The notes below the pieces were generated by a model. It ran no database searches. It saw nothing but the letters and a program-made list of their open reading frames with translations, and had not been told where the DNA came from. The translations under genes and the position numbers were made by a program. From contig CAZVLA010000013.1 of the NCBI GenBank assembly GCA_964627805.1, positions 2,046 through 66,045 on the forward strand: 64,000 nt of DNA, given 5' to 3'. The DNA comes from an uncultured Desulfurococcaceae archaeon (lineage in GTDB: Archaea > Thermoproteota > Thermoprotei_A > Sulfolobales > NBVN01). Each line of letters opens with the position of its first letter. Within the stretch, counting starts at the first letter, position 1. Shown here piece after piece: positions 18,369 through 54,918 of the stretch.

Positions 18369-18680
18369 TTACTTCCCTCTGTTAGGTACAGCAATAATTA
18401 ATTCCCTACTTCTATCAATGAGTTTTAATGTGCCATCGGTTATTAAGCTCCTTATAATTCTCTTCGAAATGGACATCTTAATTGACAAAGCATTAGCTAA
18501 AGCTGATGGTGTTACTACGTCCATTCCCTGAACGACTCTCCTAGCTCTTCTTAATAATTGCTCATCAATTATTGATGGTAAGGTTTTACGCTCTTCCTTG
18601 CTTGTCTTACGTACTCTTAAGGCTTTTCTTCTCTGTTTATCCATAGCGGATAGGGGCTTCTTAGGTTTACCTCCACCCAT
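18369..18680 (-). CDS. rps25e: ribosomal protein S25e (eS25)
   Basis: 103 aa. It has a basic N-terminus GGGKPKKP and the winged-helix segment VVTPSALANALSIKMSISKRIIRSL. Confidence 0.8.
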   Translation of the reverse strand: MGGGKPKKPLSAMDKQRRKALRVRKTSKEERKTLPSIIDEQLLRRARRVVQGMDVVTPSALANALSIKMSISKRIIRSLITDGTLKLIDRSRELIIAVPNRGK

Positions 18681-18839
18681 GACTCACTACCGAAGTAATT
18701 CATTATTAAACCAATCTAAAAGCTTTCTTCAAATATTAACCTAAAATACAATGCACGTATATACCGTAGTGTGACGAATTGGAGGAGTGTTAGTCTTTTA
18801 AGCTTATTCAATAGCCAACAATAGTAATGGTGAGGTAGC

Positions 18840-19067
18840 GTGAGGTTAGTAACAGTTAAGGTTCCTGAAATTTACTTAGAAGGTATTGATGAGTTAGTTA
18901 AATTAGGAAGGTACTCAAGTAGGTCAGAAGTTATTAGAACCGCAATTAGGGATTTACTAAGGAGAGAACTATGGGTCAATAAAGTAACCGCATCAGACAT
19001 AATAGCTACCCACGATTTTGAGTTACCAGGAAAGAAGGTCTTCATACGTAAGATAAAAATAGTATAA
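18840..19067 (+). CDS. ribbon-helix-helix (CopG/NikR-N type) DNA-binding protein
   Basis: 75 aa with a GTG start. [37 protein letters not shown] fits a beta-alpha-alpha RHH. Confidence 0.7.
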
Positions 19068-19578
19068 TCGCTGAAACCTAAGGCAACTTCTTCACTCCTT
19101 AGTAGGGGCTAGAGGTAGTAGTTTATGATGGTTACGGCTACGTAGTAACCCTATAATTAATTACTGGGTATGCTTATATAGTGTATCTACCTAAATCCGC
19201 AGTTAATCAATGCTCTACAATACTGTAATAGCCTCTTTACGAATTGCTATCCCTTACTAATAGTTAAAGTTCCTAAAACGCTCCTCATGAATACTGATGG
19301 ATTCTCAAAGAGCGATAGTATAATGCGAGTATAATGCAAGAAAGATTGAAATATAGTGTAATGATTGCTATGTAATGTTAATTACTATAATCAGTACTTA
19401 ACGTAAGTGTAAGTTAGAGGTATGAGGGATTACATACGCCTAAAGTCTTAGGTACCAGTACATTTCGTTGAGGTACTTCTCCTATTATCAGCATTCTCAT
19501 TTCATAAAGTTCGTGTGTGACCCTACACTTAAAATACCTACTACAAAAGTGTTTTATTGGCAATGAGGAGGGCTGGTA

Positions 19579-20382
19579 TTGCTGAGTAGTGAGGAAGGAC
19601 ACCAGTACCGAGCCGTAGTTAAGGAGGGTGATTTAGTAGTAATATACATCGATGATAAGAGGAAGAAGCTAGTTAGGGTTAGGCGTGGTGACATATTCAA
19701 CTCTGATAAGGGCTATGTGAGGCATGATGAGTTAATAGGTATTGAGATAGGTGATAAAGTAAGATTAAGTACTGGTAAATACGCATACGTACTCAATCCA
19801 TTATTAACGGATATTATTGATTCCTACAAACGTGTTACTCAAGTCATATATCCTAAGGACATAGGATTAATGATAGTACTTACGGGTATTGGTCCGGGTT
19901 CTAAAGTACTTGAGGGAGGTGTAGGTACTGGGTACTTAACTTCGTTCTTAGCCAATATTGTAGGGGATGAAGGTAAGGTATATGCGTATGAATTAAGGAG
20001 GGAGTTCATCGAGGTGGCTAAAAGAAACTTAAGTAAGTCAGGACTACTTAGTAGGGTCATACTGAAGCTCGGTGACATAAGAAAGGATGTTACTGAAAAG
20101 AATTTAGATGCAGCTTTCCTAGATATACCTGACCCTTGGAATGCCTTAGGTATACTCCCTAAAGTCTTAAAGCCCTCATCACCTGTAGTAGCTTTTTTAC
20201 CAACTGTTAATCAGGTCATAAAATTAATCAGTAAGTTAAAGAGCACTCGCGGCTTCATCGATATCAGGGTTTTTGAAACTCAGCTGAGGGAATATAACGT
20301 TGATCCTGAAGCATTAAGACCTAAGCCCATATACGTGGTACACACGGGTTACATGGTGTTCTTTAGGGTAGTAAAGAAATGA
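19579..20382 (+). CDS. trmI: tRNA (adenine-N1)-methyltransferase TrmI/Gcd14 family
   Basis: 267 aa from TTG 19579 (start uncertain). Motifs are EGDLVVIY, the SAM motif VLEGGVGTGYLTSFLA, and FLDIPDPW. Confidence 0.85.
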   Translation: MLSSEEGHQYRAVVKEGDLVVIYIDDKRKKLVRVRRGDIFNSDKGYVRHDELIGIEIGDKVRLSTGKYAYVLNPLLTDIIDSYKRVTQVIYPKDIGLMIVLTGIGPGSKVLEGGVGTGYLTSFLANIVGDEGKVYAYELRREFIEVAKRNLSKSGLLSRVILKLGDIRKDVTEKNLDAAFLDIPDPWNALGILPKVLKPSSPVVAFLPTVNQVIKLISKLKSTRGFIDIRVFETQLREYNVDPEALRPKPIYVVHTGYMVFFRVVKK

Positions 20383-23330: not shown

Positions 23331-23468
23331 TGTGTCATAGTCTCCATCAGTAGTTAAATTGAGTAACTAAAATAACTTAATGGTAATACGGATTTTCAGC
23401 CCTACCTCATGCTTTTGGGGAGGCTCTTTTAAGTTACCTTAAGTTAAGGTGTAGTTAGGGAGGGAGCT

Positions 23469-26171
23469 ATTAAGTTAATTAGTAAGAGAGGTAAGCGAGT
23501 TAAGTATAGGAGCTTACTGGAGTACGTATACGGCGTACCTCCGTCAAAGATAGTTACTCTTAAGTATAATGGATCTGTTGTTAAGGTTATTAAGGCAAGT
23601 ACTGAGGATATTAAAAAGTATTCTGTAATATCTGATATAATAGTACGGGTAAGTAACTTTAAGAGAGCTTATTTACTGGGATCCTACTACTCAGGCAAGT
23701 CATTGAAGGCGTACTTAAGATTCTATGACGACGAGTCAAATAAGGTTTATGAGTTATATGATACCACCGGACATAAACCTTACTTCATAACGGACACACC
23801 ACCTCAGAAGATAAATGATATGAAGAATGTGGTCGAGGATCCCTCCTTTGATCATGTAGAGGTAATTAAGAAATATGACTTATTAAGGGGTGAGTATAGG
23901 GTACTTACTAAGATAGTAGTTAAGGATCCGCAAGCGGTTAGAAGATTGAGAGGTAATTTCAAGAATGTATGGGAAGCTAAGATTAAGTACCATGATAACT
24001 ACATCTTTGATAATCAATTAGTTCCTGGTATGCTCTATACCGCGAGCCACGGTAAACTAACTCGGCTAGATGTTAAGGTACGTAGTGAGATAAGGGAGTT
24101 ATTTAGCAAGGCTGTCGAAGGACTGCCCGATGAGATTAAGAAAAATGCCCTTACTTATATGCCCCTCTTCGAAGCCAAGCCCCCTAAAATACGTAGGGTT
24201 GCGATAGATATTGAGGTATACACGCCTTTTAGGGGTAGGGTACCCGATCCTACGTCAGCGCCTTACCCTATTATTAGTGTGGCTTTAGTATCTAATGATG
24301 GCTTAAGAAAGGTGTTGGTACTTGCTAGGGATGATGTGAAATTTGGTGATTTAAGTAAATTACCTAATGATTTTGAGGTGGAGGTATTCGATAGTGAATA
24401 TGCGTTGTTGATGGAGACCTTCAGAATACTGTCTAAGTACCCATTAGTAATTACTTTTAACGGCGATGAATTCGACTTACCTTATCTATATAATAGAGCA
24501 TTGAACTTAGGCATCGACCCTCACCTAATACCCATAACTGAGGTAAGGGACTTCGTAAGTGTAAGGCATGGCTTCCATATTGACCTATATAGATTCTTCA
24601 GCATCGAGGCTATACAGAACTACGCATTCGGTTCAGCCTACAAGGACAGGACCTTAGATGCCATAGCTCAAGCATTACTAGGTGAGTCTAAGGTTAAGAT
24701 CGAGGAAAGCATAAGTGACTTACCTATGGCGGAACTAATAGAGTATAATGCCAGAGACGCGGACTTAACGTTAAGACTAACTACATTTAATAATGAATTA
24801 GTGTGGAAGTTAATTGTACTAATAATGAGATTAGCTAAAATGAGTTTAGAGGACGTAACACGAAGAAAGGTTTCAGCATGGATAAAGAACTTAATGTACT
24901 GGGAGCATAAGAGAAGGAATTACCTAATACCCAATGACGATGAATTAAAGAGTATTAAGGGGGAGGTGAAGACAGCCGCCAAGATAGGTGGTAAGAGGTA
25001 TGCAGGTGCCATAGTTATCGACCCGATACCGGGTGTGTACTTTAACGTAGTAGTCCTTGATTTCGCCTCACTATACCCGAGCATAATAAAGGTATGGAAC
25101 TTAAGTTACGAAACAATAGATCCACTACCTAACTTCTGTAAGGATGGTGAAATAGCTGAGATAAAGGACGAAAAGGGTAATGTAATACATACTGTGTGTT
25201 TGAGTAGGAAGGGTATAACGTCAGAGATCGTCGGTTTACTTAGGGACTTTAGGGTTAAGATATATAAGAAGATGGCTAAGAGCCAATCAATACCTAAGGA
25301 GGAGAGGGAGTGGTATGATGTTGTTCAGAGCGCTATGAAGGTATACATAAACGCTAGCTACGGAGTTTTCGGTCACGAGAAATTCCCGCTATATACACCC
25401 TCAGTAGCGGAGTCGGTAACTGCCCTAGGTAGGTACGTAATAACGTCAACATTGAGGAAGGCTAGGGAGTTAGGTCTTAAGGTACTATATGGAGATACTG
25501 ACTCACTATTCCTCTGGAACCCTGATGAGAGGGCATTAAAGGAACTTATGGAGTGGGTGGAGAATAACTTCCAATTGGATCTCGAGTTAGATAAGGTGTA
25601 TAAGTACGTAGCTTTCGCACTTAAGAAAAACTACCTAGGTGTGAGGGTCGACGGTAAGATCGACGTTAAGGGTATGGTAGGGAAGAAGAAGAACGTACCT
25701 AAACTACTTCAAGAAACATTTACGAAAGTAGTTGAGCTCATGAGTAATATAGAGGATAACCCAGTAGTGCTTAATGATATCAAGAATAAATTGAAAGAAA
25801 CAATACATGATGTGTACATGAGGCTAAAGAATAGAGAATTCACTCTTGATGAAGTAGCTTTTAAGACAACTTTAAACAAGCCTTTAGAGGAATATACTAA
25901 AACAACACCAATACATGTTAAGGCAGCTAAGCAGCTTAGGAGATACGGCATACTAGTGAGTAAAGGCGATACTATATACTACGTAAAGACCAGAACTAAG
26001 GATAGAGTAAAGGCGGTTCAGTTAGCTAAGCTTGACGACGTTAATATTAATGAATATATAGATACGATGAAGTCTGTACTCCAGCAACTCCTACTGCCGT
26101 TTAGTATTGAGTGGGAAGAGATAGCAGGTAGTATGGGTCTTTATAACTTTATTGCTAACTCGAGAAAGTGA
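23469..26171 (+). CDS. polB: family B DNA polymerase (PolB1/Dpo1-type); start codon uncertain
   Basis: Exonuclease motifs are VAIDIEV, ITFNGDEFDLPYL and YNARDADLT. Polymerase motifs are VLDFASLYPSII, KVYINASYGVFG and LYGDTDSLF. The frame is open from 23448 and the first canonical start is TTG 23703, but conserved N-terminal sequence lies upstream. ATT 23469 is used here as a provisional start. Confidence 0.9.
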   Translation: MKLISKRGKRVKYRSLLEYVYGVPPSKIVTLKYNGSVVKVIKASTEDIKKYSVISDIIVRVSNFKRAYLLGSYYSGKSLKAYLRFYDDESNKVYELYDTTGHKPYFITDTPPQKINDMKNVVEDPSFDHVEVIKKYDLLRGEYRVLTKIVVKDPQAVRRLRGNFKNVWEAKIKYHDNYIFDNQLVPGMLYTASHGKLTRLDVKVRSEIRELFSKAVEGLPDEIKKNALTYMPLFEAKPPKIRRVAIDIEVYTPFRGRVPDPTSAPYPIISVALVSNDGLRKVLVLARDDVKFGDLSKLPNDFEVEVFDSEYALLMETFRILSKYPLVITFNGDEFDLPYLYNRALNLGIDPHLIPITEVRDFVSVRHGFHIDLYRFFSIEAIQNYAFGSAYKDRTLDAIAQALLGESKVKIEESISDLPMAELIEYNARDADLTLRLTTFNNELVWKLIVLIMRLAKMSLEDVTRRKVSAWIKNLMYWEHKRRNYLIPNDDELKSIKGEVKTAAKIGGKRYAGAIVIDPIPGVYFNVVVLDFASLYPSIIKVWNLSYETIDPLPNFCKDGEIAEIKDEKGNVIHTVCLSRKGITSEIVGLLRDFRVKIYKKMAKSQSIPKEEREWYDVVQSAMKVYINASYGVFGHEKFPLYTPSVAESVTALGRYVITSTLRKARELGLKVLYGDTDSLFLWNPDERALKELMEWVENNFQLDLELDKVYKYVAFALKKNYLGVRVDGKIDVKGMVGKKKNVPKLLQETFTKVVELMSNIEDNPVVLNDIKNKLKETIHDVYMRLKNREFTLDEVAFKTTLNKPLEEYTKTTPIHVKAAKQLRRYGILVSKGDTIYYVKTRTKDRVKAVQLAKLDDVNINEYIDTMKSVLQQLLLPFSIEWEEIAGSMGLYNFIANSRK

Positions 26172-32189: not shown

Positions 32190-33560
32190 TTGGACATACT
32201 TATACTAGCATCTAGCTTAGCGATGCTAAGCTACGTAATTGGTGTTATAGTATATGCTTTACCTGTGCCCTATAGGCCTATTAAGAAACTAGGTATGGCT
32301 TTCATAATTGATGCTATCGTAGCAATGATTCTAATAACTATCTATAACGTATTCATTTACGTAGGTGACTTCATATTAAATCTACTTAATTTAACGTGGC
32401 TTGACTTTTATAGATGGTTGGTAAGTAGAACAGCTGTGTTAGTTGGTGTATTTACGGGGCTTTCATACTTACTATCAATGATTAAGGTCTCGCAGTACTC
32501 ATTTATTCTCTCTCCCCTTAATCTAGTCCTTACGTATATCTCACTTTCCCTATCTGCATTAAAGATTGTCTACTTTCTCTCGACACTCATCTTTAAGTTT
32601 CGTAAGGAGTTAGTACTACTTGGAGTGCTTCTTTACTCATTACCGTTTAGGATAGGTAAGGGAGTAGGGGCGTTCTTAATAGCTTGTTCAATAGTACTCT
32701 ACGTCGGTTTCCCTCTAATGCCTGCTTTCGTGAGTTACTTTGAGGGTAACATAATTAGTAGCGGTAACTTCGGACCGACCACAATATATGGTACTATAGT
32801 TGATGGAGCTGGTAATTACCTACCGTACTCAGTACTTTTAGTATACCTAAAGAAAGTAAGTAGCCCTCACGCAATACCGTCGGCAGTAATACTAACTAAT
32901 GATAGAGGTAAGTTCGTATTAGGTGATGGTAAGGATATAATACCTAAGAACACTACGTTGTATCTACGTGTAGAGTATTTAGGCTACGTATTTGTACCTC
33001 AGCCAAATGAATTCATCGCTAAAGGATTTAAGAAGAATATAGTATTGAGGGTGAATTCCATTATTTACTCAGCAGGTGTAGCATTACTCATACCTTTTAA
33101 CTATGTATTACTGAATAAGTTCATTACTGGCAACCTAATCGATGTAACATTAAAGCCTATTAGTAATAATAAAGTACTAAGCTTAACACTAATTAAGTAC
33201 CACAGCACACCAATATACAGAATAGCAATCAATAACAAAGAATATATATGTAATTGGTCGGTCTTGAGCTGGAGGGGTATTAAATTAAGTTCTTGCACAT
33301 TAAACATTAAGCTAAGTAATGACTTATTCAATATAATAATATTCCATGAATCTATGGAACCCAAGAGACCCAATGTAAATCAGAAGAGATTACTATTATT
33401 AAGTGGTATAAGCGACTTAATAGCTGGCTACATATCATTAGGTGTTTCACTTCTTTACTCATTGATTTTCCTGCCAGGTATGTACGTCTCACTTCTCTTA
33501 GCTATGTCAGCGGCTCTTTCTAGGGTATTAGGTGGTGGAATAAGAATTAAGCTAATATAG
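32190..33560 (+). CDS. polytopic membrane protein with central beta-rich extracytoplasmic domain
   Basis: 456 aa. It has about six N-terminal TM segments, a ~200-aa hydrophilic beta-rich insert (GTIVDGAGNYLPYSVLLVYL...) and two C-terminal TM segments. The TTG start is preceded by AGGTGA. Confidence 0.6.
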   Translation: MDILILASSLAMLSYVIGVIVYALPVPYRPIKKLGMAFIIDAIVAMILITIYNVFIYVGDFILNLLNLTWLDFYRWLVSRTAVLVGVFTGLSYLLSMIKVSQYSFILSPLNLVLTYISLSLSALKIVYFLSTLIFKFRKELVLLGVLLYSLPFRIGKGVGAFLIACSIVLYVGFPLMPAFVSYFEGNIISSGNFGPTTIYGTIVDGAGNYLPYSVLLVYLKKVSSPHAIPSAVILTNDRGKFVLGDGKDIIPKNTTLYLRVEYLGYVFVPQPNEFIAKGFKKNIVLRVNSIIYSAGVALLIPFNYVLLNKFITGNLIDVTLKPISNNKVLSLTLIKYHSTPIYRIAINNKEYICNWSVLSWRGIKLSSCTLNIKLSNDLFNIIIFHESMEPKRPNVNQKRLLLLSGISDLIAGYISLGVSLLYSLIFLPGMYVSLLLAMSAALSRVLGGGIRIKLI

Positions 33561-33569
33561 GGTGAGGAA

Positions 33570-33755
33570 ATGATGAGTAGGTTAAGAAGATATAGCATAG
33601 AAATTCTATTGACGGTATTTATAGTGTCTGTACTCCTAAGTGAGGCTGATAACGCATCCCGTAGCGATATAATTATACTTTCCATAGTGTTAATTACGGC
33701 TTTAATAGCTACTAGGTTTCTTAGGAAAACCTTAGGTACCGTAGCTACACTCTAG
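33570..33755 (+). CDS. small two-helix membrane protein
   Basis: 61 aa with helices IEILLTVFIVSVLL and IIILSIVLITALIATRFL. The ATG is preceded by GGGTGAGGA, 9 nt after the upstream stop. Confidence 0.4.
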   Translation: MMSRLRRYSIEILLTVFIVSVLLSEADNASRSDIIILSIVLITALIATRFLRKTLGTVATL

Positions 33756-33805
33756 TAAGTCGATACGTGGTCTTAATGAGTAATGTGATTAACACTTCAG
33801 ACCTA

Positions 33806-34054
33806 TTACCTAAATATTACTAAATCTTTCTTACGCCATTTTACACTATCTCTTCTTAGGTATTCTTCGACACCCTCAGCCGTCCCTTCTATGGATACGA
33901 AATATAATTCCTTAACCACCTTACTTCTCACGGCCTTAATTACTTTGTACCTTCTAGATATCTCTTCAATGATCTTCCGTGCTTCATCGTCATTAAACGT
34001 TACGAATACTACATCAGTTCTTACGTACTTAACGCTCCTTAACTGCTTGCTCAT
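33806..34054 (-). CDS. hypothetical small protein
   Basis: 82 aa. It overlaps the 3' end of the upstream gene by 26 nt, and no motif is recognised. Confidence 0.4.
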   Translation of the reverse strand: MSKQLRSVKYVRTDVVFVTFNDDEARKIIEEISRRYKVIKAVRSKVVKELYFVSIEGTAEGVEEYLRRDSVKWRKKDLVIFR

Positions 34055-38783: not shown

Positions 38784-38840
38784 ACGGTGATGAGCGGATC
38801 ACGGATTGACTTGGTGATGAAAACCCCGTATTACTGATTA
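38784..38840 (+). ncRNA. candidate C/D box sRNA
   Basis: C GTGATGA 38787-38793, 12-nt spacer GCGGATCACGGA, D'-like TTGA 38806-38809, C' GTGATGA 38814-38820, 13-nt spacer AAACCCCGTATTA, D CTGA 38834-38837. It abuts the stop codon of the convergent decarboxylase gene. Confidence 0.7.
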
Positions 38841-40004
38841 ATTAGAGTCAGTAACAGTTCTCTTTAAATCACTTAGAAATTCGTTGATTACCTCCTCATT
38901 AGTATGAGGCATTAAGGTTACTTTAATCCCATTAATGAATGGACACCTGTATAGGTGCCATCCTCTCCTTATAAGTTTAGTCATTACCGTGTGGTTAAGC
39001 CTACCCTTACCTAAACTAAAGCATATAATGGGTAAGTCCGGCTCCACCACCTTGCAGTTCAAGTTGATCAGAGCATCAGTTAGGTACCTAGTCAACTTAA
39101 TTAACCTATCAACAATAGCTTTAAAACCGTAAAAACCTAAGTAGTTAATACTTGCCCATAGGGCAGCTGCAGACGCTGCTGTCCTAGTCCAAAGTAAGCT
39201 ATATTGGTGTGTTTGATTTATAAAATACTTTGATTTGAAAGTGATTGGTTTTAAATAGTCGTTGTTCCTTAATATAAGAGCACCTGAAGGTATGGGCGTT
39301 AGACCCATTTTATGCCCATCAATACCTATGCAAGCTACGGTGGGTATTTTAAATCCGTAATAAGGTATACTACTGCTTTCTTCTATGAATGGCGTTATTA
39401 ATCCACCAAAAGCAGCATCAACAACTACTTCAGTATCCGGTAATTCTTCATAGAGTTGCTTAACATCATCAATAGTCCCGGTTTCTGTGTTTCCAGCCGT
39501 CAGTACTACAAACACTCTCCTCTTACCTAATTTCCGAACAACTTTAACTACGTCACTTATGCATGCTTGATTCCTTTTATTTACTCCGGTACGTACTACT
39601 CTTAACTTAAGTATCCTAGACGCCTTAAGTACGGATTCATGCGCGTTCTGCGGTACTACTACCGTGTCGTAACCGAGTTCTCTCATTATATACAGTGACG
39701 TTAAGTTAGCTTCACTACCTCCGTAGGTAATAATGCCTGCAGGAATGGGCTTATTACCGTGTAGCTCCTCTAGAGATCTAATCACTTCATCAGCTAACAA
39801 CTTAGACATTCTAAAGTACGAGTACTCATTTAGGTTCCTATCAATAAACTTCACAAAGGCGTGGAGCGATGCTTTTAACGGCTTACTCATCATAGGTCCT
39901 AAGGACTTCCTACTTCCTAACCTAGGTTCTATACTATCCAATACGTCAATTATCTGAAGTACCCGATCACCAAGTCCTCTCATAGGGAAATACTTAAGCC
40001 CCAA
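38838..40004 (-). CDS. mfnA: group II PLP-dependent decarboxylase (MfnA-like tyrosine/aspartate decarboxylase)
   Basis: 388 aa with GGSEANLTSL and the PLP-Lys context IGIDGHKMGL. Confidence 0.8.
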   Translation of the reverse strand: MGLKYFPMRGLGDRVLQIIDVLDSIEPRLGSRKSLGPMMSKPLKASLHAFVKFIDRNLNEYSYFRMSKLLADEVIRSLEELHGNKPIPAGIITYGGSEANLTSLYIMRELGYDTVVVPQNAHESVLKASRILKLRVVRTGVNKRNQACISDVVKVVRKLGKRRVFVVLTAGNTETGTIDDVKQLYEELPDTEVVVDAAFGGLITPFIEESSSIPYYGFKIPTVACIGIDGHKMGLTPIPSGALILRNNDYLKPITFKSKYFINQTHQYSLLWTRTAASAAALWASINYLGFYGFKAIVDRLIKLTRYLTDALINLNCKVVEPDLPIICFSLGKGRLNHTVMTKLIRRGWHLYRCPFINGIKVTLMPHTNEEVINEFLSDLKRTVTDSN

Positions 40005-40103
40005 CCTAAGACCCTCTTAGGTAAGTCTGAGGCTAGAAATAAATTAACGTCGTGAATACAGGTAACGAATTATGTAAGCCCTTAGAGGGGGTATCTCAAT
40101 ATG

Positions 40104-40111
40104 TTTTATAA
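40104..40111 (+). promoter_or_regulatory. TATA-like box upstream of leuS
   Basis: TTTTATAA predicts a transcription start around 40131-40137, just before the GGTG motif and the in-frame ATT 40144. Confidence 0.35.
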
Positions 40112-40143
40112 GCTAGTACCTACCTTTTAGTTTGGTGTAGCCT

Positions 40144-43110
40144 ATTGCTGAAGATAGTATTGATAAGTATATTGAATACCTTAAGAATGTAGCTAGGAAA
40201 TGGTCCGAGAAGTGGTTTAGAGATAAGGTTTATGAGGCGGATCCGAAGCCCGGTGTACCTAAGTACTTCACAACCGCAGCATTCATGTATCCTAACGCAC
40301 CAGCACATATAGGTCATGCAAGGACGTACTTAATTCCTGACATCATCGCTAGGTATAAGAGGGCTGTCGGTCATAACGTACTATTTCCGATGGCATTTCA
40401 CTACACAGGAACACCTATATTAGTAATGGCGGAGAGGATAGCATGTAATGACGAAGCATTCATTAATAAATTAGTAAGTAACTTTGGAATACCTAAGGAA
40501 GTACTAATGAAGCTTAAGGAACCACTCTCGCTTGCTAGGTACTTCCACGAAGTTAGTAAGGACGCCATGAAGTACTACGGATTAAGTATTGATTGGCGTA
40601 GGGAATTCACTACAATAGACCCTGAATTTAAGGCGTTCATAAGGTGGCAATTTAAGAAATTAAGGGATAAGGGATTTGTAACACAAGGATCACATCCGGT
40701 AGGTTGGTGTCCAAGGCATGAGATGCCTGTAGGTATGCACGATACTAAAGATGATGTTGAACCCGAGATAGAGGAATTTACTGTTATTAAGTTCCCCATG
40801 ACTGATGAAGAGTACGTACTACCGACGGCGACATTAAGGCCTGAAACAGTGCTTGGAGTAACGAATGTATGGGTTAATCCTGAGGAGGAGTATTGCTTAT
40901 GTAGAGTCTATACTAAAGAGAGTAAGGTGGAGAAGTGGGTATTAGCATGTAAGGCTGTTCATAGGCTTAAATATCAATTAACCGTAGAAGTGGAGAGTAG
41001 GATCTTAGGTAAGGAATTAATAAATAAGGAGGTAATTAACCCGGTTACTGGAAGGAAAGTTAAGGTATTGCCTGGGAGGTTCGTGAATCCTAAGTATGGA
41101 ACCGGTGTGGTTATGAGTGTACCGGCGCATGCACCTTATGATTATATAGCAATAGCTGATTACCTAGGTAACTTAAGTGATGAGTCGTGGGGCGACTTAA
41201 GACCTATACCGTTAATAAGGGTTAGCGGTTACAGTGACGTACCTGCAAGGGATGTAATTAAGAAGCTAGGTATTAAGTCACAGAATGATAAGGAACTACT
41301 TGATAAGGCTACTAAGGAGGTATATAGGGTAGAGCTAGAGAATGGGATAATGAGGGATGACGTCATTGAGTTAGTTGTTAAGGAGTTAATACCTAATATA
41401 AAGTACATCATAGAGAGTAAGGTAAGGGGTAAGAGCGTTAAGGAGGCAAGAGAAGTAATTAAGGATACCTTACTCACTTCAGGATACGGTGATGTGATTT
41501 ATGAATTAATAAATGCTCCCGTCTACTGCAGATGCGGTACTGAGGTTGTTGTTAAGTTACTAAGGAATCAATGGTTCTTGGACTACGGAAATAGTGAGTG
41601 GAAGAAATTAGCTAAGGAATTACTAAGCATGATGAGGATCATACCGGAGGAGGCACGTAATCAGTTCTTAGCAGTTATAGATTGGTTAAGAGCTAGGGCA
41701 TGTGCTAGGTCACGTGGCTTAGGTACTGAGATACCTTGGGGTGAGGGGCACTGGATAATTGAGTCCTTGAGTGACTCAACAATATACATGGCATTTTATA
41801 CTGTGGCTCATAAGATAAGGAAGTACAGGATACATCACTCAAAATTAACTGAGGAGTTCTGGGACTACGTACTATTGGGTACGGGTAATGCTGAGGAGGT
41901 GGGTAGGAAGTTAGGAATCGATCCTAATATACTTAAGGACCTAAGGACTGAATTTACGTACTGGTATCCATTGGATTCGAGGCATAGCGGTAAGGACCTA
42001 ATACCTAATCATCTATCGTTCTTCATATTCAATCACGCAGCGATATTCCCACGTGAATTATGGCCTAAGCAGATAGTAGCTAATGGCTGGGTCCTAATAC
42101 GTGGCGAGAAAATGTCGAAGTCTAAAGGTAATGTTAAGACTTTAATGGGTCTAATAGAGTCCTACTCTCCTGATGCTGTAAGACTTGCATTAGCTACTAT
42201 AGCAGAGGTTGAGCAGGATCTAAACTTCGATGAAGAATCAGTTATTAATGCGTTAATGAAGATATTAGATATAGAGTCATTAATTACCAAGCTGTATAGC
42301 GAGGCAAATAATGAAGTATATGAGTTACCAGAGAGATGGATTATGAGTAGGTTATACAGCAGTATCTCGAAGATATTAAGTGATCTAGAAAATGTGCGAA
42401 TTAGAAGTGCTGGGGTAACTACCTACTATACCATGTACTCGGACCTCAAGAAATATCTTTGGCTCTCTAAGGGGAGGGTATCTAAGTGCGTGAGAGACTA
42501 CATAAGAGAATGGATTAAGGTGATATCTTGGTTCACACCCTTCATTGCCGAGGAGTTATGGCACAGACTAGGCTTTAGCACCTACGTTGTTAAGGAGAAA
42601 TTAACTGACATAGAAGAACTTAAGAAATACTACGATCCTTTAGCTGAGCTATCTATATTCTATGCTGACGCGGTGGTTGAAGATATAAGAAGTATTATGC
42701 GCGTAGTTAAGGGTAACGTCGTCGCTGTTTACGTAGCTAATGATAGTGATTACGAGATCATTAAAGAGGCTATAGATGTAATTGAGAATAACGGTAAATT
42801 ATCAGACCTAATAAGGAAGTTAAGAAACGTAATACCTAAGTTAGGTTATAGCTTAAAAGACCTACCATTAATATCTAAGCAAATCTACGAAATAGTGAGC
42901 AAATTACCTGCAGATTTAAGGAAGTATTTAAGGAGTTTAGGTAGGTTTGATGAGAAGGAAACCCTAGAAAAGCTAAGGGGGTATATAGAAGGTAGATTAG
43001 GGATTAAAGTGACTGAAATTAAGTCTAAGGACGAGGTTAAGGTGAGTTATGGAAGAATTGAGGGTAAGTTAATACTTCCTCTAAAGCCAGCAATATTAAT
43101 CAAGCAATAA
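40144..43110 (+). CDS. leuS: leucyl-tRNA synthetase; start codon uncertain
   Basis: It has the HIGH motif NAPAHIGH, the KMSKS motif GEKMSKSKGN and a large CP1 editing insertion. The frame is open from 40141 and the first canonical start is ATG 40285, only 8 codons before HIGH. The upstream in-frame sequence ...ARKWSEKWFRDKVYEADPKPGVPKYFTTAAF is LeuRS-like. ATT 40144 is used as a provisional start. Confidence 0.95.
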   Translation: MAEDSIDKYIEYLKNVARKWSEKWFRDKVYEADPKPGVPKYFTTAAFMYPNAPAHIGHARTYLIPDIIARYKRAVGHNVLFPMAFHYTGTPILVMAERIACNDEAFINKLVSNFGIPKEVLMKLKEPLSLARYFHEVSKDAMKYYGLSIDWRREFTTIDPEFKAFIRWQFKKLRDKGFVTQGSHPVGWCPRHEMPVGMHDTKDDVEPEIEEFTVIKFPMTDEEYVLPTATLRPETVLGVTNVWVNPEEEYCLCRVYTKESKVEKWVLACKAVHRLKYQLTVEVESRILGKELINKEVINPVTGRKVKVLPGRFVNPKYGTGVVMSVPAHAPYDYIAIADYLGNLSDESWGDLRPIPLIRVSGYSDVPARDVIKKLGIKSQNDKELLDKATKEVYRVELENGIMRDDVIELVVKELIPNIKYIIESKVRGKSVKEAREVIKDTLLTSGYGDVIYELINAPVYCRCGTEVVVKLLRNQWFLDYGNSEWKKLAKELLSMMRIIPEEARNQFLAVIDWLRARACARSRGLGTEIPWGEGHWIIESLSDSTIYMAFYTVAHKIRKYRIHHSKLTEEFWDYVLLGTGNAEEVGRKLGIDPNILKDLRTEFTYWYPLDSRHSGKDLIPNHLSFFIFNHAAIFPRELWPKQIVANGWVLIRGEKMSKSKGNVKTLMGLIESYSPDAVRLALATIAEVEQDLNFDEESVINALMKILDIESLITKLYSEANNEVYELPERWIMSRLYSSISKILSDLENVRIRSAGVTTYYTMYSDLKKYLWLSKGRVSKCVRDYIREWIKVISWFTPFIAEELWHRLGFSTYVVKEKLTDIEELKKYYDPLAELSIFYADAVVEDIRSIMRVVKGNVVAVYVANDSDYEIIKEAIDVIENNGKLSDLIRKLRNVIPKLGYSLKDLPLISKQIYEIVSKLPADLRKYLRSLGRFDEKETLEKLRGYIEGRLGIKVTEIKSKDEVKVSYGRIEGKLILPLKPAILIKQ

Positions 43111-43140
43111 ACTCTTTTATCCTTCATAGAAAATACGTAT

Positions 43141-43197
43141 TAGATGATGCCACGATGGGCGGACTGAGTAAGTGATGAACCACTGTAGCGCTGATGT
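43141..43197 (+). ncRNA. candidate C/D box sRNA
   Basis: C-like ATGATGC 43144-43150, spacer CACGATGGGCGGA, D' CTGA 43164-43167, C' GTGATGA 43172-43178, 12-nt spacer ACCACTGTAGCG, D CTGA 43191-43194. It lies 30 nt after the leuS stop. Confidence 0.65.
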
Positions 43198-43219
43198 AAT
43201 TACCTTCATGGTTAGGGAT

Positions 43220-43480
43220 TCATTTACTAATGAGTTTACTTCTTATCTTTCTGGATATCTTGTACCAGCTAAGTAACCATAGAGCATTAACTACTAGGAA
43301 GAGTATCGTAGTTACTATTTGGGATAGAATAAGCAAAATGTAGTTATACCTAAACATAGCGGAGAATCTCCGTAGCTGAATTATTACTAAGGGCTGTATA
43401 GCTATCCATGCAATTGCGTATATCGATAGTAACGAAGGTATTACAGCTGCCTTTAACGCGTCCCTAACCATCTTAAGCAC
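43220..43480 (-). CDS. small membrane protein, function unknown
   Basis: 86 aa with two or three hydrophobic helices and a basic C-terminus. No motif is recognised. Confidence 0.35.
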   Translation of the reverse strand: MLKMVRDALKAAVIPSLLSIYAIAWIAIQPLVIIQLRRFSAMFRYNYILLILSQIVTTILFLVVNALWLLSWYKISRKIRSKLISK

Positions 43481-43520
43481 CCTAGGTATAGCCTTAAATA
43501 TATTCCAAATAATTTTAATA

Positions 43521-43577
43521 AGGAGTGATGAATACCTCCGGTCCTGATAAGTGATGTGAAGGCATTTGCCTGATTAA
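43521..43577 (+). ncRNA. candidate C/D box sRNA
   Basis: This is a textbook layout. C GTGATGA 43525-43531, 12-nt spacer ATACCTCCGGTC, D' CTGA 43544-43547, 3 nt, C' GTGATGT 43551-43557, 12-nt spacer GAAGGCATTTGC, D CTGA 43570-43573. Confidence 0.8.
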
Positions 43578-43726
43578 TCACTTATAAGGGGTAAGCAGCG
43601 TGGGTTTCTCATCATATTCTAAAGTCAGCGCTTATAGACCCAGCCCATCCCCCCAAGCAGAAAAATTTACTTCGTGTCTTTAAATGTTAAATCCTTTCGT
43701 TTCGATTCTTCCTATAGGGTACGAGA

Positions 43727-44410
43727 ATGAAGTGGAGCCCTGGAAGGAAATATAGAGAGTTAAGGATAAGGTTGGATGCTGTGGAGTCGCTAGCGGCTAT
43801 TAAGGACGTATTCTCATATGATGAGTTATCTCCACTTCTAGGATTGCCAGCTTCAGTTTTAAGTAGGTACTATCAGGGTAGTATGATACCTAACGTTGAG
43901 ACAGCTAAGACTATGTTAAACGTATTTCTATCTAAGGAATTTGCTAGAAACTTTATTTATAAAGCGATCCATGAGAAGTACGGCGGTAGTTTATGTAGGT
44001 TACTGAGTAACTCAAAGATCATGAAATACGTTAGCCTCTACATGTATAGTAGGATAATCGATAAGTTAGCAGGAAGTAAAGTATCGGTAATTCTGTCACC
44101 TCCTAATTACTCCCTAGCTATGGCCTCAATAATAGCTCAGAGATTCGGGATTAACGTAGTACTAATGACTAACTACTTATACGGAGGATTAAGAAGTAAC
44201 GTGTCTGATGTTAAGGTATCTTCACTGCATCACGGAAATATAGCTGTAGCTATATTCATGACCTTCAGTAAGGACGATCTCGCAGCTATTAAGGAATTCA
44301 TAAGTAAGTATAGACTAGAGCTTAAGCTTATTGAGACCATAGTATTAGCCGATATAATCCCCAAAGATCAATTACCTATAGGTGCTGAGATTGAGTACAT
44401 ACTACCGTAG
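43727..44410 (+). CDS. putative HTH protein with phosphoribosyltransferase-like C-terminal domain (degenerate PRPP motif)
   Basis: 227 aa. The N-terminal SYDELSPLLGLPASVLSRYYQG is HTH-like. The C-terminal KVSVILSPPNYSLAMASIIAQRFGINVV...GNIAVAIFMTFS resembles a type I PRTase fold without the acidic/TG motif. Confidence 0.45.
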   Translation: MKWSPGRKYRELRIRLDAVESLAAIKDVFSYDELSPLLGLPASVLSRYYQGSMIPNVETAKTMLNVFLSKEFARNFIYKAIHEKYGGSLCRLLSNSKIMKYVSLYMYSRIIDKLAGSKVSVILSPPNYSLAMASIIAQRFGINVVLMTNYLYGGLRSNVSDVKVSSLHHGNIAVAIFMTFSKDDLAAIKEFISKYRLELKLIETIVLADIIPKDQLPIGAEIEYILP

Positions 44411-44422
44411 TAGAGATAGTTG

Positions 44423-44519
<97 letters not shown>

Positions 44520-44606
44520 TGCCGCACTGTACTTTTTTTAAGTCGGTAAAAATAGGTTCCGGATATTCGCTTATGGTTAAGTTACTTGTATTTTAAGGGT
44601 TAAAGC

Positions 44607-44614
44607 TTATAATT
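44607..44614 (+). promoter_or_regulatory. TATA-like box upstream of the rpoH-rpoB-rpoA operon
   Basis: TTATAATT lies 38 nt upstream of ATG 44652, which is itself preceded by GGTGGTGA (SD-like). Confidence 0.4.
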
Positions 44615-44651
44615 AGTGTATCGGAATCCCGAATAGTTGAGTGGTGGTGAT

Positions 44652-44900
44652 ATGCCCAGTAAAAAGAGATTTAAGGTAATTGAGCATGAGTTAGTCCCTA
44701 AGCATGAAGTCTTAAGTCCCGAGGAAGCAGTTAAGGTACTGAAGGAGTTAGGGGTAACTCCGGAGATGCTTCCTTGGTTACGTGCCTCAGACCCTGTAGC
44801 TAAGGAGATAGGTGCTAAGCCTGGAGACATAGTTAGGATTGAGCGTAGATCTCCAACGGCGGGTAAGGTAATTGTTTACAGATTCGTTGTTGCTGGGTGA
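44652..44900 (+). CDS. rpoH: DNA-directed RNA polymerase subunit H (Rpo5)
   Basis: 82 aa from ATG 44652 (the track begins at TTG 44637). Motifs are [19 protein letters not shown] and [25 protein letters not shown]. Confidence 0.9.
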
Positions 44901-47900
44901 TATGCTTGGTTAATGATAATACATGGTTAACACCGGAGGATCGTTGGGCTATTATGGAGGCATTCATTAAAGAGAAGGGATTAGTTAGGCAGCACTTAGA
45001 CTCCTATAATGCATTCGTGACTTCATGGATTAAGCAGATAGTCAAGGAGGTAGGTAGAATCGAGACTACACAGCCTGGAGTGTATATAGAAATCGTTGAT
45101 ATAAAGATAGGTGAACCTCAATTTAGGGAAGTTGAAGGAAATATTGAGAGAATAACACCTATGGAGGCTAGGATACGTAACCTCACGTATGCAGCACCTC
45201 TTAAGTTAGTAGTAGCTCTATACGAGAATAGCGTCGAGATAGCTAGGCAGGAAATACCGCTTGGTGAATTACCTATTATGATAAGGTCTGTGCTAGACCC
45301 CACTTCAAGAATGAGTAGGGAGGAGTTGATAGCTATTGGTGAGGACTGGAGAGATCCTGGTGGTTACTTCATAATTAATGGTTCTGAAAGGGTCATAGTT
45401 ACCCAGGAGGATCTAGCACCCAATAGGGTGTTCGTTGATAAAGCTAAGGAAGGAACTAACATAACGCATACTGCTAAAGTCATATCTGCTTCAGCCGGGT
45501 ATAGAGTACCGATAATACTTGATAGACTGAAGGATGGTACATTAGTAATTAACTTCCCGCCAATACCTACTAAGATACCCTTCGCGGTAATGATGAGGGC
45601 TTTAGGACTTGAGAGTGATAGGGATATAGCATTAGCTGTATCGACGGACCCAGAGATTCAGAATGAGCTACTTCCATCACTACTTCAAGCAAGGGAAATA
45701 AAGACTCAAGAGGATGCTTTAGACTACATAGGTTCTAGGGTAGCTATTGGGCAGGCAAGGGAGGCTAGGATTGAGAGAGCGGCTCAGATAATAGATAATT
45801 ACTTCTTACCTCACTTAGGTACATCACCAGCTAGTAGAATTAGGAAAGCCCTCTACTTAGGTCAGATGGCTAATAAGTTACTGGAGCTAGTGCTTGGGAG
45901 GAGGAAACCCGATGATAAGGATCACTACGCCAATAGGAGGTTAAGGTTAGCAGGGGATCTACTTGCGCAGTTATTTAGGGTGGCGTTCAAACAGTTCATA
46001 AAGGACTTCAAGTACCAAGTGGAACGACATAGATTGAGGGGTAGGAGACTTAATCTGAGGGCATTAGCTAGGCCTGACATAGTGACTGATAGGCTAAGGC
46101 ATGCTCTAGCAACAGGTAATTGGGTAGGTGGAAGGACAGGAGTTAGTCAGATATTAGATAGGACAAACTGGATATCAGCTCACAGCCACTTAAGGAGGAC
46201 CGTAGCGCCATTAAGTAGGGGCCAGCCTCACTTTGAGGCTAGGGATCTACATCCGACACAGTGGGGTAGGATATGTCCCTTCGAGACCCCGGAAGGACCT
46301 AACTGTGGGTTAGTTAAGAACTTAGCCTTAAGTGCTCATATATCAGTAGGTATTGACCCAGCACCAGTAATTGAAACGCTTAAGGCCTTAGGAGTAGTAC
46401 CTATTGAGGAGATATTCGCAAGGTTACATGCTGGGGATGAGGAACTTATAAATAACTTAACTAAGTACGCTAAAGTATTTGTTGATGGTACGCTAATAGG
46501 TTACTACCTTAAGGAGGATGCATCAGACTTAGTGATGAGGATTAGGGAATTAAGGAGGTTAGGTAGGATACATCATGAGGTAAATATATCTTACCTAAAG
46601 ACTGAGTACCTTAATGAGGTATACATAAACTGTGACGCAGGTAGGGTTAGGAGGCCGCTACTCATAGTTGATAATGGTAAGTTAAGAATAACTAAGGAGA
46701 TCGTGGAGAGGCTTAAGAGAGGGGAGCTTACATTCTCAGATTTAGTAGCCTTAGGTTACATTGAGTATCTAGATGCTGAGGAGGAAGAGGATGCCTACAT
46801 AGCACTAAATCCAGAGGACATAACTCCGGAGCATACTCACTTAGAGATATGGCCTCCAGCAATAATGGGTATAGCAGCAGCTACCATACCGTACGCGGAG
46901 CATAACCAATCACCTAGGAATGCCTACCAATCAGCTATGGCTAAGCAAGCAGTAGGTTTCTACGCATCAAACTTCCACTTAAGATTTGATAGTAGAGCTC
47001 ACTTCCTACATTACCCGCAGAAGCCTATTGTTCAGACGAAGTTCCTTGACGTAATAGGCTATAATGACAGACCATCAGGGCAGAACTTCGTAGTTGCGGT
47101 ACTTTCATTCACGGGCTACAATATGGAGGACGCAGTAATAATGAATAAATCCTCGATAGAGCGTGGATTAGCTAGGTCAACATTCTTTAGGGAGTACAGT
47201 ACCGAAGAGCTACGATATGCTGGTGGGCAGAGAGACAGAATAGAGATACCTGACCCAAGCGTTAGGGGATATAGGGGTAGGGATCACTACAGATTACTAG
47301 ATGAAGACGGGATAATCAGTCCCGAGGTAAACGTGTCTTCAGGTAATGTACTTGTCGGTAAAACCTCGCCACCTAGGTTCCTTGAGGAGTATAGGGAGTA
47401 TGCAACGACAACCGTTATGAGGAGGGACACATCATTAACTTTAAGGCATGGAGATAAGGGAGTAGTTGATTCGGTAGTCATTACTGTGAGTGCCGAAGGT
47501 AATAGATTAGTAAGAGTTAGGGTGAGAGACCTTAGAATACCTGAGATAGGTGACAAGTTCGCATCAAGGCATGGCCAGAAAGGTGTTATAGGGTTATTAG
47601 TACCTCAGTATGACATGCCGTACACTCCGGAAGGCATTACTCCTGATTTAATAATTAATCCACATGCTTTACCATCAAGAATGACCGTAGGGCAGTTAAT
47701 AGAGTCAATAGCTGGTAAGGTAGGTGCTTTAGCTGGTAGATTAGTGGACGGTACACCATTCTACGGTGAGAAAGGAAAGAAGCTACAGGAGGAATTACTA
47801 CTGCTTGGTTACCCAGCTGATGGAACTGAACCAATGTATGATGGAAGAACTGGTGAATTAATAATGACTCCCATATTCATAGGTATAGTGTATTACCAGA

Positions 47901-48298
47901 GACTACATCATATGGTAGCTGATAAGATGCATGCAAGAGCTAGGGGACCGATACAGCTACTGACAAGGCAGCCTACCGAGGGAAGAGCTAGGGAGGGAGG
48001 TCTGAGATTCGGTGAGATGGAGAGAGACTGCTTAATAGGTCATGGAGCCCCACTACTTCTCCAGGAGAGGTTATTGGAGAATTCGGATAAGGCAGTAATA
48101 TACGTATGTGAGGAGTGCGGATTAATAGGTTGGTACGATAGACGCAAAGGTAAGCTGGTATGTCCAATACATGGTGAGAGAGGTAGGCTTTACCCAGTAA
48201 CGGTATCGTACGCATTCAAGCTACTCCTGCAGGAACTCATGAGTATGTTGATTTACCCACGAATAATACTTGAGGATAAGATTAAGAGGAGTAGGTGA
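44897..48298 (+). CDS. rpoB: DNA-directed RNA polymerase subunit B (unsplit, Rpo2)
   Basis: 1133 aa with [41 protein letters not shown] and the C-terminal zinc motif CEECG...CPIHG. There is a GTGA overlap with the rpoH stop. Confidence 0.97.
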
Positions 48299-54196: not shown

Positions 54197-54312
54197 TCTA
54201 TCCTACCACGCATACCTAATATGAAGTTACTCTAGCAGTTTTTAGCAGTAATGTACATACTAGCTAAAAAGTATTAATAGCTCAGTACGTAAGCAGGATA
54301 GGTTGAAGGTGT

Positions 54313-54918
54313 ATGAGTGGGAGAGAAACTACTCAGGTACTCGAACCTAAGCCTGAGGAGATAAAGTTATTCGGTAAGTGGAGCTTCGATGGTGTCGTAG
54401 TTAGGGACCCTAGCCTTAAGAAGTATATATCATTAAGACCCGTATACCTACCACATACTGGGGGTAGACACGAACATAAGAGATTCGGTAAAGCTGAGGT
54501 ACCTATCGTTGAGAGATTAATGAACATGCTGATGAGACCGGGAAGGAATACGGGTAAGAAGCACCTCGCCTACAACATCGTTAAGAGAGCATTTGAAATC
54601 ATACACATAAAGACCGGAGAAAATCCGCTTCAAGTCCTCGTAAGGGCTATTGAGAATGCAGCACCTAGAGAGGAAACTACTAGGATTATGTATGGAGGTA
54701 TCATATACCACGTAGCAGTTGATGTCTCACCTCAAAGGAGAGTCGATCTAGCACTAAAGTTCATTACAGAAGGTGCTAGAGCGGCTGCATTTAGATCAAC
54801 TAAGAATATAGCTGAGTGTTTAGCTGACGAAATAATACTGGCAGCTAAGGGAGACTCAAGAAGCCACGCAATCTCTAGGAAGGAGGAGATCGAGAGGATA
54901 GCATTAAGCTCGAGGTAA
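54313..54918 (+). CDS. rps7: ribosomal protein S7 (uS7)
   Basis: 201 aa with [22 protein letters not shown] and [18 protein letters not shown]. Confidence 0.95.

Follow-up and report, generated by a model that had tools for sequence, protein, structure and literature searches.

A conserved ATT codon behind a Shine-Dalgarno motif as the probable start of leuS in an uncultured Desulfurococcaceae archaeon and its relatives

The leuS gene of an uncultured Desulfurococcaceae archaeon, which encodes leucyl-tRNA synthetase (LeuRS), has no canonical start codon ahead of its conserved N-terminal coding region. The gene lies in a stretch of 64,000 nucleotides (nt) of contig CAZVLA010000013.1 (GenBank assembly GCA_964627805.1, positions 2,046 to 66,045 of the forward strand), hereafter the window, in which all positions below are counted. 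Here we describe the start region of this gene, compare it with those of related archaea and propose that translation probably begins at an ATT codon. By direct reading, the leuS frame runs TTG 40132, GTG 40135, TAG 40138, CCT, ATT 40144, GCT GAA GAT, and the first in-frame ATG, GTG or TTG after TAG 40138 is ATG 40285, leaving a start-less run of 48 codons that translate to PIAEDSIDKYIEYLKNVARKWSEKWFRDKVYEADPKPGVPKYFTTAAF. ATG 40285 encodes the Met of FMYPNAPAHIGH, 7 codons ahead of the first His of the HIGH motif, and is preceded by in-frame ATT codons at 40144, 40159 and 40171. The leuS coordinates, codons, GGTG motif, TATA box and translation given in an earlier note on this DNA all match the re-read sequence. 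The features of the region are as follows.

40104..40111, plus strand: TATA-like box TTTTATAA of the leuS promoter, read directly, ending 22 nt before GGTG
40132..40140, plus strand: in-frame TTG-GTG-TAG, read as incidental 5' untranslated region (Shine-Dalgarno motif plus spacer), the homologous bases varying among relatives
40134..40137, plus strand: Shine-Dalgarno (SD) core GGTG, 6 nt before ATT 40144
40144..40146, plus strand: ATT, proposed leuS initiation codon (AUU read as Met by the initiator tRNA), on the basis of conservation and SD anchoring
40144..43110, plus strand: complete coding sequence of leuS with 988 codons and TAA, for a class I LeuRS of archaeal type, from motifs, Pfam and the 1WKB/1WZ2 match
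40285..40287, plus strand: ATG of an internal Met (FMYPN), read as a false start picked by automatic gene callers, the protein record P0121 being called from MYPN

The length of the start-less run is unexceptional: with 4.1% of leuS codons being ATG, GTG or TTG, the chance of 48 codons without one is P = 0.13. What exceeds chance is the conserved and selected LeuRS N-terminal homology inside the run, not its length. In a six-frame survey of the window, large start-less extensions were found in only two long, evidently real genes, leuS (48 codons) and a polB-like gene (85 codons). GGTG occurs within 25 nt of the start in 20 of the 60 window genes, with a spacing peak at 6-8 nt (14 of 21 occurrences). 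The 6 nt between GGTG and ATT 40144 lie within this peak and equal the spacing between GGUG and AUG in the Pyrococcus abyssi aEF1A model mRNA, GGAGGUGAUUUAAAUG (PMC6237735). On inspection of the sequence, no SD motif was seen ahead of ATG 40285, nor upstream of ATT 40159 or ATT 40171.

The translation carries the signatures of an archaeal/eukaryal-type class Ia LeuRS, APAHIGHARTY (HIGH) and GEKMSKSKGN (KMSKS), and the open reading frame (ORF) is otherwise intact. The public record of this LeuRS is P0121, a 941-residue protein called from ATG 40285 (NCBI, JGI, Logan and ENA). Precomputed Pfam assignments for P0121 are PF00133, PF09334, PF13603, PF08264 and PF01406, of which the CP1 editing domain PF13603 (tRNA-synt_1_2) and PF08264 (Anticodon_1) are also precomputed for its homologues. 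A full-length LeuRS alignment with 32 relatives has a mean column identity of 61%. The P. horikoshii LeuRS structures 1WKB/1WZ2 match with E = 5e-51, chain residues 7-215 pairing with residues 14-218 as counted from ATT 40144. Residues 7-47 of 1WKB, including the strand that precedes HIGH, align to codons upstream of ATG 40285; because 1WKB residue 7 aligns at residue 14, a product begun at ATG 40285 would miss about 41 residues with an ordered position in 1WKB. Archaeal LeuRS in general show homology at their N-termini to the 47 codons ahead of ATG 40285, and against the 76%-identical relative L073 (leuS loci are designated by L numbers, protein records and clusters by P numbers) 25 of them are identical, 13 synonymous and 9 replaced, mostly conservatively. 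The DNA farther upstream than the leuS start has diverged from L073, except for the TATA-like box and the SD motif. This codon comparison indicates that the 47 codons are under purifying selection as a coding region and argues that they are translated.

We gathered 149 leuS loci from species-representative genomes, metagenomes and single-protein look-ups, and anchored each of them on HIGH. In 19 of the 149, all closer relatives, no ATG, GTG or TTG stands at least 40 codons upstream of HIGH. In all distant LeuRS genes (Bathyarchaeia, Nitrososphaeria, Pyrobaculum, Ignisphaera), by contrast, an ATG or GTG is present at positions -43 to -50 relative to HIGH. The lineages concerned are Desulfurococcales- and Sulfolobales-like metagenome-assembled genomes of hot-spring archaea, and their start regions line up as follows (SD motif, spacer, ATT and the next codon).

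window: GGTG-tagcct-ATT GCT
L073-75: AGGTGT-atgcct-ATT GCT
L163: AGGTGT-acgcct-ATT GCT
L076-78: GGTTGGGGT-tcgttt-ATT GCT
L001: GGTTGGGG-tttgtt-ATT GCT
L002-5 and L082: GGTGA-gat[ag]tt-ATT GCT
L161/162: GGTGA-ctgttt-ATT GCT
L160: AGGAGGTGA-acgcct-ATT GTT
L007: AGGTGAT-gtagtc-ATT GCT
L008: AGGTGT-acgtct-ATT GCT
L006/85/87/88: GGAGGGGTA-gaacct-ATT GCT
L030/L028: AGGTGAC-ctcaca-ATT ACG
L065: AGGTGAT-cgaacg-ATT ACT

The common motif is a GGTG(A) or GGGGT separated by 6-8 nt from an ATT, mostly as ATT GCT, and the distance from the 3' end of GGTG to ATT is 6-8 nt in all loci of the line-up. Sixteen lineages are represented at below 90% protein identity and 13 at below 75%, and 11 of these 13 are without a canonical alternative. 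Across the roughly 13 lineages at below 75% identity, the near-cognate codon with an SD motif 5-9 nt upstream is ATT in 10 and ATA, ACG and ATC in one each.

Controls were applied to this pattern. In each locus the ATT was picked by its position and following base, as a single candidate, and SD spacing was not a criterion. Of 16 loci, 15 have an SD motif 6-8 nt ahead of an in-frame ATT at the homologous N-terminal position, whereas among the 14,772 internal codons of these 16 genes the combination occurs at 6, that is 4e-4 per codon or about 0.6% per 15-codon zone. As to the codon itself, the start Ile codon is ATT in every locus of the ATT lineages, and in an alignment of the start region of 15 lineages the ATT columns are the only fully invariant ones. 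None of 10 ordinary invariant-Ile columns in the same genes is fixed at the codon level, all drifting between ATA, ATT and ATC. The share of ATT is 20% at these ordinary columns and 28% among all Ile codons, ATA being dominant.

Sister lineages carry ATG, GTG or TTG at the SD-anchored site homologous to ATT. At this one aligned position we read GGTG-8 nt-ATG AGT ACC GTA GAC GAG TTC in L127/L089, GGTG-9 nt-GTG AGT AGC GTA GAC GAG TTC in L093/L091, and GGTG-8 nt-ATT ACG ACG GCT GAG GAG TTC in L030/L028/L065. Such interchange of ATG, GTG and ATT is the behaviour expected of a start codon. Canonical codons upstream of ATT, in turn, appear to be incidental, because the TTG of one lineage falls out of frame in another and an ATG is replaced by ACG in a third. 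The TTG chosen by the gene caller in L001 sits within a nucleotide-conserved element, AGGTTGGGGTT; in L076-78 a 1-nt indel in AGGTTGGGGTT puts it out of frame and no canonical start is left, with ATT GCT in place. The codon at the position of the window's TAG is ATG in L073-75 and ACG in L163, and CCT ATT GCT is fixed in all three. L163, which is called from MYPN, belongs to the same cluster as L073 at 90% or higher protein identity. The window's TTG-GTG-TAG has its homologue in TTG TGG TGA of L002-L005, and no such mini-ORF is present in L006, L008, L076 or L065.

Some relatives show other near-cognate codons behind the SD motif. L157 (about 245-262; the leuS of P0151, ENA REYS20-1 scaffold_4) reads AGGTGA-tggagt-ATA TCA with no canonical upstream start, which makes its ATA a candidate AUA start; an out-of-frame ATG 1 nt after its GGTG opens a 9-codon ORF. 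The Zestosphaera-like L159 (about 370-400) and L083 read AGGTGA-agtagtc-ACG GGC, again with no canonical start; L158, in which a stretch of N covers the start region, belongs with them. In the likewise Zestosphaera-like L156 (395-412), L080, L081 and L084 the ACG is kept at 6-8 nt, and the GTG or ATG chosen by the caller overlaps the SD motif itself. This Zestosphaera-like leuS group may use ACG initiation. L095 (GGTGA-atga-ATC TTT GTT) and its sister L097 (GGTGG-aaa-GTC TTT GTT), at 51-52% identity to the window, both lack a canonical start, carry out-of-frame ATGs that open short ORFs across the SD motif, and share no evident near-cognate codon. Judged from these start regions, the clade tends to weak leuS starts and not to ATT alone.

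The centre of an archaeal TATA box usually lies near -26/-27. In the window and in L073, L163, L003/L004, L161, L157, L156 and L159, the SD motif is preceded by an A/T-rich, TATA-like box whose end lies 21-23 nt ahead of it. From this geometry, the leuS transcript of the window is predicted to start at about 40133-40135, at or just before GGTG. With such a start the leader would be about 10 nt, consisting of the SD motif and the spacer; TAG 40138 would therefore be untranslated spacer, and TTG 40132 would be at or outside the 5' end. An RNA operator or leader structure at the leuS start, by analogy with Escherichia coli thrS, was considered and rejected. RNAalifold gave 0 conserved pairs for the leuS 5' region of 15 lineages, the 84-nt 5' region of the window is no more stable than shuffled sequence (fold z = +0.77), and an Rfam scan of the window returned its three tRNAs only and no leuS leader element. 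These results lend no support to an operator or recoding structure; for SD-led initiation, the initiation region is expected to be unstructured.

We consider it highly probable that leuS is transcribed from the TTTTATAA promoter with a leader of about 10 nt, that its translation starts at the SD-anchored AUU 40144, and that this start is inherited and selectively maintained in the clade. Transcription from TTTTATAA would give an mRNA whose leader holds GGUG and the 6-nt spacer UAGCCU, with TAG 40138 as part of this untranslated spacer. The 30S subunit would dock on the SD motif and set AUU 40144 in the P site, and the initiator Met-tRNA would read this near-cognate codon to begin a 988-residue LeuRS with the N-terminus M-A-E-D-S-I-D-K; the predicted N-terminal peptide would be AEDSIDKYIEYLK, or M-AEDS with the Met kept. 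The weak start would be no lesion of this genome; it would have been inherited and selectively kept in leuS of a broad Thermoprotei clade that is Desulfurococcales-like and in part Sulfolobales-like. Along these loci the SD and ATT anatomy is conserved without canonical alternatives, the spacer between the two is variable, and the N-terminal codons behind them are under purifying selection; from this we infer actual use of AUU and a transcript start near 40134. Among the explanations offered in the earlier note, AUU initiation at ATT 40144, which the note placed behind GGTG with a transcript start predicted at 40131-40137, is the one supported, by the conservation of SD, 6-8 nt and ATT over many lineages without a canonical start. 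A 941-residue record from four sources argues against a one-off assembly error.

Several points weigh against this proposal. According to Hasenohrl et al. (2009), as cited in PMC4705826 and PMC6237735, in-vitro 30S complexes of Sulfolobus solfataricus reject a model mRNA with AUU under the action of aIF1, and efficient use of AUU in vivo is therefore not guaranteed. The nearest relative, L073-75, has an ATG two codons upstream of ATT, and the window spacer is 1 nt shorter; the ATG could thus serve in place of ATT, or alongside it, in this sub-lineage. If the transcript starts at 40134, the SD motif would stand at its extreme 5' end, an arrangement that may or may not be efficient. The hypothesis itself had some part in which ATT was chosen at each locus. 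Finally, L157 with ATA, L159/L083 with ACG, and L095/L097 depart from a pure ATT rule.

Since aIF1 discriminates against AUU in vitro, a conserved AUU may keep LeuRS translation low, sensitive to the start-codon stringency set by aIF1, or both. A wider proposition is that leuS of a large Thermoprotei clade is deliberately kept on weak near-cognate starts, mostly AUU with AUA or ACG elsewhere, and is coupled to aIF1 stringency; this we put forward only tentatively and hold to be doubtful. If true, the coupling to aIF1 would be an archaeal counterpart of the AUU circuit of bacterial infC and the first natural substrate of aIF1 discrimination in vivo.

The alternative that survives best is nevertheless unlikely. 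It takes an ATG at the position of the TAG (GGTGT ATG CCT ATT) as the true start, which the window would have lost with one base through error or recent mutation, leaving the gene mis-recorded or crippled; the true sequence would then be GGTGTATG / GGTGTATGCC in place of the recorded GGTGTAGCCTATT. The 76%-identical relative, in its three assemblies L073, L074 and L075, does read AGGTGT ATG CCT ATT GCT and is called as 992 residues from MPIAEDS, and the window differs from it by one missing T, GGTGTA[T]G. This ATG is unconserved even in a species-level group, given the ACG in L163, and lies only 1 nt past GGTG, as against the 6-8 nt peak of the window genes. Eleven more lineages are without any canonical start, the 941-residue call stands on record in four databases, and the remainder of leuS is intact and conserved. 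The variation at the TAG position (ATG in L073, ACG in its sibling L163) likewise disfavours the earlier note's suggestion that a base error created the TAG. Its proposed refutation, a resequenced sense codon that would make TTG or GTG the start, would not decide the matter, as TTG and GTG are no conserved starts in relatives. A pseudogene or sequencing artefact is disfavoured by the start-less configuration in many lineages, the codon comparison with L073 and the otherwise intact ORF. As a side observation, a window gene at 54313-54918 also has 1 nt between the SD core and its ATG (GGTGt ATG, 54300-54315), like L073.

It is still less probable that initiation takes place at another non-canonical site such as ATT 40159 or ATT 40171, both of which are without an upstream SD motif. 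Many distant orthologues have their Met1 (MEYLK or MEFLK) in line with ATT 40171, P0003 and P0009-P0016 beginning with M-E-[FY]-L-K in register with I(40171)-E-Y-L-K. Unlike ATT 40144, the Ile codon of Y-I-E-Y-L varies in relatives between ATT, ATC, ATA and GTT, and the residues encoded by 40144-40171 are conserved with L073 and L163.

A start at TTG 40132 or GTG 40135, on an mRNA that might be leaderless, with UAG 40138 read through or recoded, is very improbable. TTG and GTG do stand in frame directly before the TAG, the predicted transcript start lies at about 40134, and L002-L005 have a comparable in-frame TTG TGG TGA. Against readthrough, which the earlier note had also offered, the identity and position of the stop vary by lineage (TAG here, TGA within the GGTGA of L002-L005, TAA elsewhere), L006, L008, L076-78 and L065 have no upstream start at all, and upstream of ATT only SD-like nucleotides are conserved and no amino acids; RNAalifold on 15 sequences found no conserved structure to drive recoding. 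TAG as a general sense codon in this genome was rejected on the integrity of the long ORFs, and a frameshift from another frame was rejected as ATG 40101 opens a 9-codon ORF only and the +1 frame stops near 40190. Just as improbable is the current database annotation, a 941-residue LeuRS begun at ATG 40285 and missing the N-terminal 47 residues: this is the first canonical in-frame start and the one chosen by gene callers for P0121, but it has no SD motif and leaves upstream both the conserved codons homologous to all archaeal LeuRS N-termini and those aligned to P. horikoshii LeuRS residues 7-47 with the strand before HIGH.

Non-AUG-initiated aminoacyl-tRNA synthetase isoforms are known from yeast GRS1 (UUG) and ALA1 (ACG). 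Like leuS these are synthetase genes with near-cognate starts; they differ in that the yeast products are extra, extended and organelle-targeted isoforms beside an AUG form, whereas the near-cognate start of leuS would yield the sole functional product. The AUU start of bacterial infC, which encodes IF3, follows a normal SD motif and is conserved phylogenetically; infC is autoregulated, AUU being the codon that this fidelity factor discriminates against (PMC4705826). Both are essential genes of the translation apparatus with a conserved AUU behind an SD motif. The machinery of leuS is archaeal and the discriminator would be aIF1, not IF3; leuS encodes a synthetase and not a fidelity factor, so that feedback would be indirect, and its regulation is hypothetical. 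The in-vitro system of S. solfataricus shares with leuS its phylum, the class of SD-led mRNA and the codon, and crenarchaeal 30S complexes can bind an AUU mRNA without aIF1 (PMC4705826 and PMC6237735). There AUU was an artificial AUG-to-AUU negative control, whereas the AUU of leuS would be a natural, conserved start of an essential gene. For the Asgard tubulin AtubA, a rare ATT start at a plausible ribosome-binding-site distance was inferred, restoring the first beta-strand (PMC13394414). The reasoning has the same form as for leuS, from an archaeal gene with an N-terminally short database model; AtubA is a case of one gene from a single genome, not compared for conservation, whereas the leuS ATT is conserved in about 10 lineages with statistical controls.

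Literature searches on archaeal AUU or ATT starts returned only the in-vitro negative control and the Asgard tubulin inference, and searches on leuS non-AUG starts or conserved archaeal near-cognate starts returned nothing. AUU initiation as a class is familiar, from bacterial infC; that an essential archaeal synthetase should rely on it in a conserved manner, presumably with aIF1 as gatekeeper, appears unreported in the literature searched. Archaeal initiation is usually described as AUG, GUG and UUG only, with AUU figuring as the control that aIF1 rejects. A conserved leuS AUU, if real, would mean that selection can maintain near-cognate initiation in archaea, and would provide a native mRNA on which to study aIF1-dependent stringency and a possible translational control of aminoacyl-tRNA synthetases.

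The start region also bears on annotation. At least 12 public LeuRS clusters start with MYPN (P0121, P0123, P0125, P0126, P0140, P0150-P0152, P0154, P0156, P0163 and P0236) and are short by about 47-55 residues, while for other clusters of the clade the callers took an arbitrary internal Met. The MYPN truncation is a systematic gene-calling artefact. P0160, P0166, P0169, P0215 and P0124, among others, probably reach too far upstream, through the SD motif, and carry spurious N-termini such as ...G-x-x-I-A.... Mis-called leuS starts affect structure prediction, orthology and completeness metrics.

The second start-less gene of the window is the polB-like ORF 23448-26171 on the plus strand, in which no canonical start follows the TAA for 85 codons, the first being TTG 23703. 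Its start region reads TAA GGTGTAG TTAGGGAGGGAGCT ATT(23469) AAG TTA ATT, with a purine-rich SD-like run of GGAGG type at a shorter spacing. The motif KYRSLLEYVY (PIP-box-like; [KR]SLLE[FY]) lies 14 residues past ATT 23469, just as far as from Met1 in the homologue P0242, and the same [KR]SLLE[FY] pattern lies near the Met of the homologues P0242, P0245, P0254 and P0258. A search with polB gave distant homologues only, at 59% identity or less. From its start region, polB is probably a second ATT-initiated gene. Under the tentative proposition on aIF1 stringency, it may belong with leuS to one regulon of near-cognate-initiated housekeeping genes. The earlier remark that polB shares the leuS pattern holds in outline, in the ATT 23469 and the offset found in P0242, and does not extend to a genome-wide habit. 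Under the strict combination of GGTG, 5-9 nt and a near-cognate codon, leuS alone is recovered within the 64-kb window, and a genome-wide near-cognate start habit was rejected on this count.

The window shows archaeal traits, with an intron-containing tRNA-Lys and a G+C content of about 40%. The closest LeuRS are those of uncultured Desulfurococcales-, Zestosphaera- and Sulfolobales-like Thermoprotei; the best LeuRS match in a scan of species-representative genomes has 57% identity, and an exact look-up of the window LeuRS (40285-43110) and of P0121 for encoding loci found none. The intron-containing tRNA-Lys(UUU) is located at 44423-44519. Three long intergenic stretches, at 18680-19579 (about 900 nt), 43110-43727 (about 620 nt) and 33560-34029 (about 470 nt), hold no ORF of 100 residues or more and stand out by their length in a compact archaeal genome. 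The gene order at 38838-48298 is shared with the 76%-identical L073/L074 and comprises a pyridoxal phosphate (PLP)-dependent decarboxylase on the minus strand, leuS, a small minus-strand ORF, a 227-residue ORF, rpoH (Rpb5) and rpoB. The 43110-43727 gap contains an 86-residue minus-strand ORF (43220-43480) that is syntenic with an 88-residue gene in L073/L074.

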